Positions 18,813 through 26,911 of a stretch of 32,000 nt of DNA are shown here, piece after piece; the first letter of the stretch is position 1, and each line of letters begins with the position of its first letter. The stretch lies in the NCBI GenBank assembly GCA_024277355.1, contig JAJRVL010000004.1, positions 330,001 to 362,000 on the forward strand, in the 5' to 3' direction. Origin of the DNA: an archaeon (GTDB lineage: Archaea; Iainarchaeota; Iainarchaeia; Iainarchaeales; 1-14-0-10-31-34). The position numbers and the translations under genes were made by a program. The notes beneath the pieces are model-generated. The model did no database searches, was not told the DNA's origin, and was given only the letters and a program-made list of their open reading frames with translations.

Positions 18813-18963
18813 TTCATCGCCTCACTATTTAATATATACAATATAAGTAGTCTATCTTAAATTTTTAAAACAAAAAAACTTTTAAAACAAATGCCCTGCA
18901 ATTAAAGAAATAAACCTATTTTATTAAATTTCCCTTAAATAAATATTAATAGTAACTGTTAAA

Positions 18964-19020
18964 ACAGCAGGACTGAATGAAATGAAGTCGTGCACGCATG
19001 TCAACTGGGCGTGACAGTTG
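18964..19020 (+). repeat. GC-rich tRNA 5' leader element L1, copy A (abuts tRNA-Ser)
   Basis: ACAGCAGGACTGAATGAAATGAAGTCGTGCACGCATGTCAACTGGGCGTGACAGTTG. It is 57/57 nt identical to the reverse complement of 26256-26312. It ends in a hairpin CAACTG-ggcgtga-CAGTTG whose last G is tRNA position 1. Confidence 0.85.
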
Positions 19021-19176
19021 CAAGGGTGGCAGAGTGGTTTAATGCGCGGGCCTGCTAAAACCTTTTTAGAAAAAAGGTTTATCAAAAACAGGTAAACTTT
19101 TAGGGAAAAAAAGTTTATCAAAATTGCAGTTAGCCCGTGCCCTTTGGGCGCGCGAGTTCGAATCTCGTCCCTTGCG
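19020..19176 (+). tRNA. tRNA-Ser (anticodon GCU), class II, with 74-nt intron at 37/38 (19058-19131)
   Basis: Manual fold. Acceptor GCAAGGG/CCCTTGC; anticodon stem CGGGC/GCCCG with loop CTGCTAA; long variable arm GCCC-ttt-GGGC. T arm GCGAG-TTCGAAT-CTCGT and discriminator G. BHB: CTGC (19052-55) pairs GCAG (19126-29), flanked by 3-nt bulges TAA and TTA. Confidence 0.9.
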
Positions 19177-19305
19177 TCAAACGTTTCGCCGTTTGAGCAC
19201 GATGCACGACATCGCTTCGCTCAGTCGAGCTGTCAAAACGTAACAGCTCTATCGAGCTGAAAGCGAAGATAGTGCACACGCGTCAACCGAGTGAACGGTT
19301 GTTTT
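19177..19305 (+). other. Structured GC-rich spacer between tRNA-Ser and tRNA-Leu (trailer hairpin plus L1-like element L2)
   Basis: Helices seen: TCAAACG/CGTTTGA (19177-96), TGCAC/GTGCA (19203-07/19272-76), CTTCGCT/AGCGAAG (19215-21/19262-68), GAGCTGT/ACAGCTC (19227-33/19243-49) and CAACCG/CGGTTG (19284-89/19296-301). The 3' half aligns to L1. Confidence 0.6.
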
Positions 19306-19537
19306 GCAGGAGTAGCGAAGTGGTCAAACGCGCCAGACTCAAGAAAACTCTCTGAAAAAAAGTTTAATTAGAAACTTCAAAAAGCCTTCAAAAACTTCCC
19401 ACAAACTTTTTAGTAAGAAAGTTTTTCCCGAAATCAACTTATCAAAAAAATTCGCTTCAATGCGAAAGATTGATTTCAGGATTTTGGGGTTATCTGGTGA
19501 CTTAGTGTCTTCGGGGGTTCGAATCCTCCCTCCTGCA
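19306..19537 (+). tRNA. tRNA-Leu (anticodon CAA), class II, with 148-nt intron at 37/38 (19344-19491)
   Basis: Manual fold. Acceptor GCAGGAG/CTCCTGC; anticodon stem CCAGA/TCTGG with loop CTCAAGA; variable arm GAC-ttagt-GTC. T arm GGGGG-TTCGAAT-CCTCC and discriminator A. The BHB is imperfect (CTCA against GGGG/TGGG). Confidence 0.85.
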
Positions 19538-19594
19538 TCGCGCTTTCGAGCGCGAGAACCGAAAAACGTCCAACCTATTGCTTTGCAATAGGTT
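19538..19594 (+). other. Two tRNA-Leu trailer hairpins
   Basis: TCGCGC-tttcga-GCGCGA (19538-55) begins immediately after the discriminator. A perfect 10-bp stem AACCTATTGC-ttt-GCAATAGGTT follows (19572-94). Confidence 0.5.
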
Positions 19595-19649
19595 ATAAAT
19601 TTTCAAAAAAAAGTTTAATCAAAAAGTTTATTCTATAAAAAAAATAATT

Positions 19650-26139: not shown

Positions 26140-26254
26140 CGCCCCAGGTCAGACTTGAACTGACGACCTGTCGGTTGCTGCTTTTTGTTTTTGATAAAAC
26201 TTTTCTTAAAAGTTTTGTTAACAGCCGACTGCTCCACCACTAAGCTACCGGGGC
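26140..26254 (-). tRNA. tRNA-Asn (anticodon GUU) with 43-nt intron at 37/38 (26176-26218)
   Basis: Manual fold. Acceptor GCCCCGG/CTGGGGC; D arm GCTT-agtggtg-GAGC; anticodon stem GTCGG/CCGAC with loop CTGTTAA. T arm GTCAG-TTCAAGT-CTGAC and discriminator G. BHB: CTGT pairs GCAG (one G-U), with bulges TAA and CAA. Confidence 0.9.
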
Positions 26255-26255
26255 A

Positions 26256-26312
26256 CAACTGTCACGCCCAGTTGACATGCGTGCACGACTTCATTTCATT
26301 CAGTCCTGCTGT
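26256..26312 (-). repeat. GC-rich tRNA 5' leader element L1, copy B (1 nt upstream of tRNA-Asn)
   Basis: The reverse complement is identical over 57 nt to 18964-19020. Confidence 0.85.
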
Positions 26313-26911
26313 CAAAATACAACAGCAATATCAAACAACAACAAAAATACTACACACATACAAACTTTGCGAGAAGTTTGTTCTTTGAATAAAAAAAAAT
26401 AGAGAGAACCATTTAAAAAAGTAAGCGTTAAAAGAAAAACAAAACATCAAATAAAAGCAAAATACCAGTATATATACATAAAGAAGAAAACAAAAAACTA
26501 AGGCAAACTAAAAGAAAACAAAAAAACTACACCATATACATAATTTTTCATTGCTTTTTAGCAACAAAACAAAGCAATTTAAGACACAAAACACGAAAAA
26601 AGAATTAAGTTAGGACTTAATTTACAATAAAAGCGATTCTTACACTCTTTTTTCTATTTAAAGCTCTTGAGGCACTTATTAAACACATTTTTTTATTTTT
26701 AATGCTTAACAGCCTGAAAACAAAAAAACAATAAAAAAATTACCCCAAATACTAAGGGTTTTTTACCTACATAACTAAATTTTAGTATTTAAAAAGCTTT
26801 CTAAAAAAATAAGTGTTATTTGAGCCTTATAACTTTATCAAAACGTATATATAGCAGTTAAGCACATATTATAACTGTATTCTCTTTTTTGTAAGAGTAG
26901 GGGTGATATAT

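Follow-up and report, generated by a model that had tools for sequence, protein, structure and literature searches.

Complementarity between the leader and trailer of an Iainarchaeota tRNA-Ser(GCU) gene is probably a by-product of inverted copies of a dispersed two-hairpin module

GC-rich palindromes flank tRNA genes in the mitochondrial DNA of Neurospora crassa (Yin, Heckman and RajBhandary 1981, as cited in PMC4478555), and yeast mitochondria contain palindromic GC clusters, with mobile GC clusters marked by presence/absence polymorphism together with target-site marks or co-conversion tracts (PMC4478555). The Neurospora mitochondrial tRNA palindromes and the yeast mitochondrial GC clusters are, together with bacterial REP and BIME sequences, the closest published analogues of the sequences described here. 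No description of archaeal modules of this type was found in the literature searched. In bacteria, REP and BIME sequences are imperfect palindromes at gene ends that occur in both orientations, often as inverted pairs, and are transcribed in 3′ regions. The split tRNA halves of Nanoarchaeum equitans carry complementary leader and trailer segments.

The locus examined here belongs to a DPANN archaeon of the Iainarchaeota, with a genome of 1.13 Mb in 11 contigs, 28% GC and 96% estimated completeness, and the window is the whole stretch of 32,000 nt that was analysed (G000:C2:330001-362000). Using aragorn with introns allowed we found 41 tRNA genes in the genome, many of them with introns of 43-149 nt. 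ARAGORN with default settings returned zero tRNAs in the window because all three tRNA genes there have long introns, and these were recovered with Rfam and with aragorn once introns were allowed. Genes for tRNA-Asp, tRNA-Trp and Pro(UGG) are absent among the 41 found by aragorn in the whole genome, and unusual introns may have hidden them, or they may fall into gaps of the assembly. Identical flanks are seen around the tRNA-Phe genes located at the end of contig 9 and at the start of contig 11, suggesting an overlap between these contig ends. The gene for an archaeal RNase P RNA lies at C7:21768-22061, and conventional removal of 5′ leaders is therefore available to this organism.

A preliminary description of the window reported a 24-nt complementarity between the leader and the trailer of tRNA-Ser(GCU) and raised the idea of a processing stem in the style of those around rRNA. 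The pairing is colinear and the reported count of 19 Watson-Crick pairs, two G-U pairs and three mismatches is exact; the pairs fall into blocks of 6, 4 (one pair G-U), 3 (one pair G-U) and 8, and the duplex of the two arms has an energy of -26.9 kcal/mol (RNAduplex). When 80-nt flanks were compared with shuffled trailers the cis duplex had a z of -6.8, so the pairing is not due to chance. A fortuitous match between two unrelated GC-rich flanks would have the GC richness of both flanks in its favour and nothing more, and its probability is negligible given this z-score and the significant membership of both arms in one family (nhmmer E-values of 1.5e-11 and 2.0e-15). Coordinates of the arms, genes and modules are collected in Table 1.

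Table 1. Positions of the features discussed; plain numbers are positions in the window, other coordinates carry the genome and contig.
Feature	Position	Strand	Remarks
hp0	18956..18967	+	Small AT-loop hairpin CTGT/ACAG at the distal end of the leader module; ACAGC conserved in alignment A1
tRNA-Ser leader module	18960..19019	+ (sense)	nhmmer match; R1 match G000:C2:348960-349020; covariation support
Leader arm of the complementarity in the preliminary description	18971..18994	+	Hairpin hp1 and GTGCA
tRNA-Ser(GCU)	19020..19176	+	74-nt intron at 37/38 (19058-19131); Rfam RF00005, 42.9 bits; aragorn with introns
tRNA-Ser trailer module	19177..19237	- (inverted)	nhmmer match; R1 75.5 bits
Trailer arm of the complementarity in the preliminary description	19203..19226	+	Complement of hp1 and TGCA, in the inverted module
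Shared apical hp0	19227..19249	+	GAGCTGT/ACAGCTC; links the inverted Ser trailer module and the Leu leader module in a tail-to-tail dimer
tRNA-Leu leader module (L2)	19239..19301	+ (sense)	nhmmer, R1, alignment A1
tRNA-Leu(CAG)	19306..19537	+	Long intron; followed by a GC hairpin at 19538-19555; aragorn and sequence reading
tRNA-Asn(GUU)	26140-26254	-	In the window; leader module at 26256..26316
tRNA-Asn(GUU) leader module	26256..26316	-	Identical to the Ser leader module
23S rRNA processing stem	G000:C7:28340-31550 (L001 4340-7550)	-	Canonical 3-4-3 BHB
Module copies at stop codons	G000:C7:12380-12440, C2:401365-401416, C2:188228-188288, C2:363536-363595		Genes of 614, 430, 211 and 406 aa
Other GC-rich hairpin types	G000:C2:239700-239803, C11:69307-69405, C1:2697-2757		

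Both arms belong to a family of GC-rich modules of ~60 nt, each made of two hairpins. When the flanks of all 41 tRNAs were listed, many of the genes were found to be adjoined by GC-rich structured segments, with the leader type being the reverse complement of the trailer type. A scan of the genome for GC islands was too noisy and a regular-expression search for the arms gave mostly false matches, so nhmmer and a covariance model were used instead. The nhmmer search was seeded with ten copies and converged on 24 copies in the genome. The covariance model R1, built from a MAFFT alignment of 23 copies (A1), found 32 copies here and 18-43 in five congeners (20-63 with laxer filters), and across the order it had matches in 43 of 121 sampled genomes and 27 of 62 genera, with the number of copies per genome going from 0 to 63. 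Closer comparisons covered the five congeners and the best-scoring loci of other genomes. The modules have no match in Rfam, where only tRNA was found in 18940-19320 (E up to 1) and in the whole window (gathering score).

In the consensus, hp1 has an outer GC/GC, a stem1 of 4 bp, a tandem GA opposite GA(A), a stem2 of 2 bp and a loop of 3-5 nt that is often GNRA-like, and this is followed by a conserved GTGCA, a linker, and then hpA with a 6-bp stem and a loop near (G)CGAAA. This local fold pairs 93.2% of the cells in the alignment, compared to 67.3% in shuffles (0 of 500 reached 93.2%) and 22-40% when the partners were slid (RNAalifold and pair counting), and changes on both sides of a pair are seen in 13 of its 14 pairs. 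Watson-Crick pairs make up 95% of the stem pairs and G-U is rare; the strand asymmetry of 10 G-U versus 5 A-C in 612 cells comes from non-Watson-Crick pairs too rare to separate selection at the level of RNA from that at the level of DNA. Two other classes of structured RNA were considered and rejected. The kink-turn consensus has a 3-nt bulge next to tandem G-A pairs, and on inspection of A1 the internal loop of hp1, with GA opposite GA(A), is 2x2 or 2x3 and the 3-nt bulge is missing, speaking against a kink-turn or L7Ae hairpin. A C/D box sRNA was rejected on inspection of the Ser-Leu spacer, which has no C/C′ boxes.

Around tRNA-Ser(GCU) the leader module follows this build with an outer GC/GC, stem1 GACT/AGTC, the tandem GA, stem2 AT/AT with a GAA loop, the GTGCA linker and hpA AACTG/CAGTT, and the last base of hpA is position -1 of the tRNA (19019). 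On the other side of the gene, the hpA of the trailer module (19177-19196) begins right behind the discriminator base, and hpA, linker and the GTGCA/stem1 3′ strand are identical over ~30 columns to the leader module of tRNA-Gly(UCC) (A1, row SerGCT_DNrc). The L2 module in front of tRNA-Leu has stem1 TATC/GATA, stem2 GC/GC and hpA CAACCG/CGGTTG. Tail-to-tail dimers that share an apical hp0, as in the Ser-Leu spacer, were found at least eight times in congeners.

Other repeats were also seen in this genome. A second, AT-rich repeat is present in the window at 19058-19131 and 19558-19640 and in many tRNA flanks, where it lies inside introns and on both sides of genes in mirror orientation; its sequence is palindromic, of the type AAACTTTTT..AAAAAGTTT, with ATCAAAA behind it. 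Other GC-rich hairpins (e.g., GCACGAC-loop-GTCGTGC) occur as strings upstream of tRNA-Gly(CCC) and tRNA-Val(UAC) and within the intron of tRNA-Arg(GCG). The repeat repertoire is modular and wider than the family that was modelled.

The placement of the modules follows a simple rule, in that hpA faces the end of the gene. In this genome the seven nhmmer copies that precede a tRNA or 23S rRNA are all in sense orientation, and the seven that follow one are all inverted, with hpA as the proximal element 0-3 nt from most tRNA ends, though three downstream copies end 11-20 nt off by their nhmmer coordinates. The one exception is a copy 45 nt upstream of tRNA-Glu(UUC). The orientation is the same in distant genomes of the order, where copies precede Leu, Ile, Val, Arg and Met and follow Glu, Leu and Asp, among others. 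The 94-nt intron of tRNA-Tyr contains a sense module (G000:C1:10915-10977) that ends at the last intron base (C1:10977), and the Tyr introns of two other genomes in the order (L037 and L051) carry a module as well, which suggests that it may be a long-lived component of this intron. In four orphan copies hpA lies -2 to +1 nt from the stop codon of a protein-coding ORF, either convergent or upstream, and the rule extends to mRNAs in this way. We found no split or permuted tRNA beside orphan copies. A further copy at C3:35490-35541 lies just 5′ of a Shine-Dalgarno-like GAGGTGA and the ATG of a short zinc-ribbon-like ORF, and tRNA-Ala(UGC) in the spacer of the rRNA operon has two leader modules in tandem. 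Since it is always hpA that is flush with the gene end, a copy upstream and a copy downstream of the same gene are inverted repeats of each other and able to pair.

Whether the two modules at tRNA-Ser(GCU) pair with each other or fold separately was compared in silico, and all structures given here are predictions. The preliminary description had pointed out that the trailer arm can pair locally with the 3′ arm of L2 instead, and this alternative does appear in the fold of the spacer 19177-19304, which by itself gives a composite hairpin of -47.0 kcal/mol. For the precursor 18950-19600 the MFE is -217.5 and includes the enclosing helix, versus -209.5 kcal/mol for the summed local domains, with a pair probability of ~0.84 for the enclosing helix and ~0.16 for the local leader hairpin. 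At equilibrium the enclosing helix is predicted to be modestly favoured in silico, by a nearest-neighbour model that does not reward the tandem G-A pairs of the local hairpin and takes neither co-transcriptional folding nor early cleavage into account. It is possible that the enclosing helix really does form in vivo, where it may have some effect.

A genuine processing or clamp stem would make use of this helix. The two modules would join in an imperfect ~45-bp helix, stacked coaxially on the acceptor stem, which would either provide an endonuclease site or slow RNase P and tRNase Z, giving tRNA-Ser(GCU) an rRNA-like maturation. Besides the place of the helix in the MFE of the full precursor, the continuation of the pairing through the hpA regions up to the acceptor stem and the occurrence of the same module family beside 23S rRNA are consistent with such a stem. 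We nevertheless regard it as very unlikely. In an all-against-all duplex matrix of 41 leaders and 41 trailers, strong cis pairing was found in Ser(GCU) only (-57.1, with the next best at -28.1), and a lack of leader-trailer complementarity at other tRNAs, which the preliminary description had named among the outcomes that would speak against a processing stem, argues against such a stem in this genome. The Ser trailer pairs more strongly in trans than with its own leader, reaching -101.0 with the leader of Gly(UCC) on contig 11 and -99.1 with the leader of Ala(UGC) in the rRNA operon. In thirteen trans pairs the pairing equals or exceeds that of Ser in cis, and the mean for cis pairs (-16.3) is no stronger than that for trans pairs (-17.4). 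As had been noted before, tRNA-Asn in the same window has the same leader over ~57 nt and an AT-rich trailer with no complement to it.

The orthologous loci do not conserve the pairing either. All four congeners with a recognisable tRNA-Ser(GCU) locus have retained the leader module, whose hp1 shows compensatory changes, and a promoter-like AT box; their trailers hold an AT-rich palindrome, a module of a short variant, another type of hairpin, or nothing. Their cis z-scores are -1.0 to -2.6, compared to -6.8 here. Family members enclose two other tRNAs, Glu(UUC) in G002 and Ser(UGA) in G004; there the two sides carry different subfamilies, and the z-scores are -0.5 and -3.0. The imperfections of the helix give a similar picture. 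Stem2 is AT/AT in the leader arm and GC/GC in the inverted trailer copy, a compensatory difference that leaves each local hairpin intact, and this swap explains four of the five imperfect positions of the long helix (both G-U pairs and two mismatches), leaving one A/T difference as the fifth. The differences between the arms are compensatory within each module and not between modules; the pairing preserved is the one inside the module.

The helix also differs from the rRNA stems in its structure. A bulge-helix-bulge (BHB; 3-nt bulge, 4-bp helix, 3-nt bulge) is the EndA site in archaeal rRNA stems and is required for circular pre-rRNA (PMC7038931), and this element is missing from the Ser helix, which is interrupted solely by three 1x1 mismatches and is free of bulges. 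The 23S stem of the same genome served as a positive control: here a 6-bp helix is followed by a 3-nt trailer bulge, a 4-bp helix, a 3-nt leader bulge and finally a long helix (3-4-3 BHB). The GC modules there lie 20-31 nt outside this stem and are predicted to fold locally. The 16S processing stem is a long AT-rich helix. With no BHB, no counterpart at four orthologous loci, a single case in 41 tRNAs and stronger pairing in trans, an rRNA-style processing stem is not supported.

Instead, the complementarity is very probably a by-product of inverted copies of the dispersed module family. This had been offered as a caveat in the preliminary description, and it agrees with the family membership of both arms, the orientation rule, the conserved local fold and the lack of cis-specific or orthologous conservation of the long-range helix. 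tRNA-Ser(GCU) has a sense copy upstream and an inverted copy downstream, the latter being the first half of a tail-to-tail dimer that also supplies the leader of tRNA-Leu. According to this explanation, every module would normally fold alone into its two hairpins, in parts of the precursor that are transcribed and discarded, and RNase P and tRNase Z would cut at the junctions of hpA and tRNA. The long-range helix would have no dedicated role, though it is thermodynamically competitive in the unprocessed Ser-Leu precursor. Our result is a deflationary one, as we see no evidence for a new rRNA-like maturation route of a single tRNA.

Inverted copies could also matter as DNA, with the RNA being irrelevant. 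Homologous recombination between them could invert or rearrange tRNA genes, along with the 7.2-kb segment that separates the identical Ser and Asn leaders. The Ser and Asn leader modules share ~57 nt of identical sequence in inverted orientation and bracket ~7.2 kb of protein genes, a potential inversion substrate, and the Ser and Leu genes that are in tandem here are divergent in four congeners. The recurrence of tail-to-tail dimers points the same way, as does the predominance of Watson-Crick pairs in the stems, which means that both strands can fold. We find a role at the level of DNA very unlikely all the same, as no recombinase or Y1 transposase was found in five congeners, and recombination could be a consequence of the repeats instead of their function. 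The search for PF01797 (Y1/RAYT transposase) gave no match in the five genomes G000-G004 and did detect the control genomes, so a REP/RAYT interpretation of the family appears weakened.

As for the function of the family itself, we give about equal weight to modules that would act at the level of RNA, as autonomous hairpins defining or insulating ends in discarded precursor segments, and to a tolerated repeat resembling REP sequences or GC clusters. The conservation across the order, the conserved loops, the placement to the exact nucleotide and the retention at orthologous sites (the Ser leader in five genomes and the Tyr intron in three) argue for a real constraint on the folded single strand, whereas the copy number of 0-63 and the identical 57-nt copies before two unrelated tRNAs point away from it. 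It also counts against such a constraint that both orientations conserve the same sequence, so that leader and trailer transcripts carry loops that are complementary and not identical, and that the stems are rich in Watson-Crick pairs, as expected if both strands must fold, or if recombination exchanges copies between the two orientations. The choice between these functions leaves the verdict on the leader-trailer helix unchanged.

In a more ambitious proposal the module would be a general gene-end device of Iainarchaeota, an autonomous two-hairpin RNA with hpA flush with tRNA 5′ and 3′ ends, exon borders, rRNA stems and mRNA stop codons, where it would define or protect ends, and wherever one tRNA is enclosed by two modules, as at Ser(GCU), these would close into a clamp that controls the access of RNase P and tRNase Z and so times maturation. 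We think this unlikely as a whole. The family is notable for its conservation across the order, its covarying stems with conserved loops and its nucleotide-exact position at tRNA ends, an exon border and stop codons, and it is a reasonable target for studies of RNA end formation or of repeat dynamics in reduced archaeal genomes. In the AT-rich genomes of DPANN archaea, matches between leaders and trailers should be checked against dispersed repeats before they are read as processing stems, signals of split tRNAs or borders of mobile elements.

Among the known systems, the archaeal 16S and 23S stems resemble the Ser locus in having inverted sequences that flank a mature RNA and are able to form a long enclosing helix (at Ser, in silico). 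Unlike those stems, the Ser helix has no BHB, is not conserved in orthologues and is made of generic repeat copies. The split tRNAs of Nanoarchaeum equitans offer another parallel within DPANN, with GC-rich complementary segments beside a tRNA and, as here, the trailer of one locus complementing the leader of another; the tRNAs in our genome are complete genes, however, and the segments are repeat copies common to many unrelated tRNAs and not partner pairs. With bacterial REP and BIME sequences the modules share the form of dispersed, imperfect palindromes in both orientations, at 24-32 copies here and with BIME-like tail-to-tail dimers. They differ in their archaeal host, in the missing REP-associated tyrosine transposase (PF01797, five congeners) and in being found chiefly with stable-RNA genes, including 5′ leaders and introns.

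The mitochondrial GC palindromes and clusters are also short GC-rich hairpin repeats of a very AT-rich genome, located in intergenic regions and beside tRNAs, with constrained stems and a copy number that varies among close relatives. The trailers of the Iainarchaeota modules differ from one orthologous locus to the next, and the flanks of these loci are too diverged to show insertion footprints of the kind that mark mobile clusters. In contrast to them, the modules described here reside on an archaeal chromosome of the free-living type and have a fixed build of two hairpins with conserved tandem-GA and GNRA-like loops, and they follow a strict rule of hpA towards the gene that also places them at intron-exon borders and flush with stop codons.
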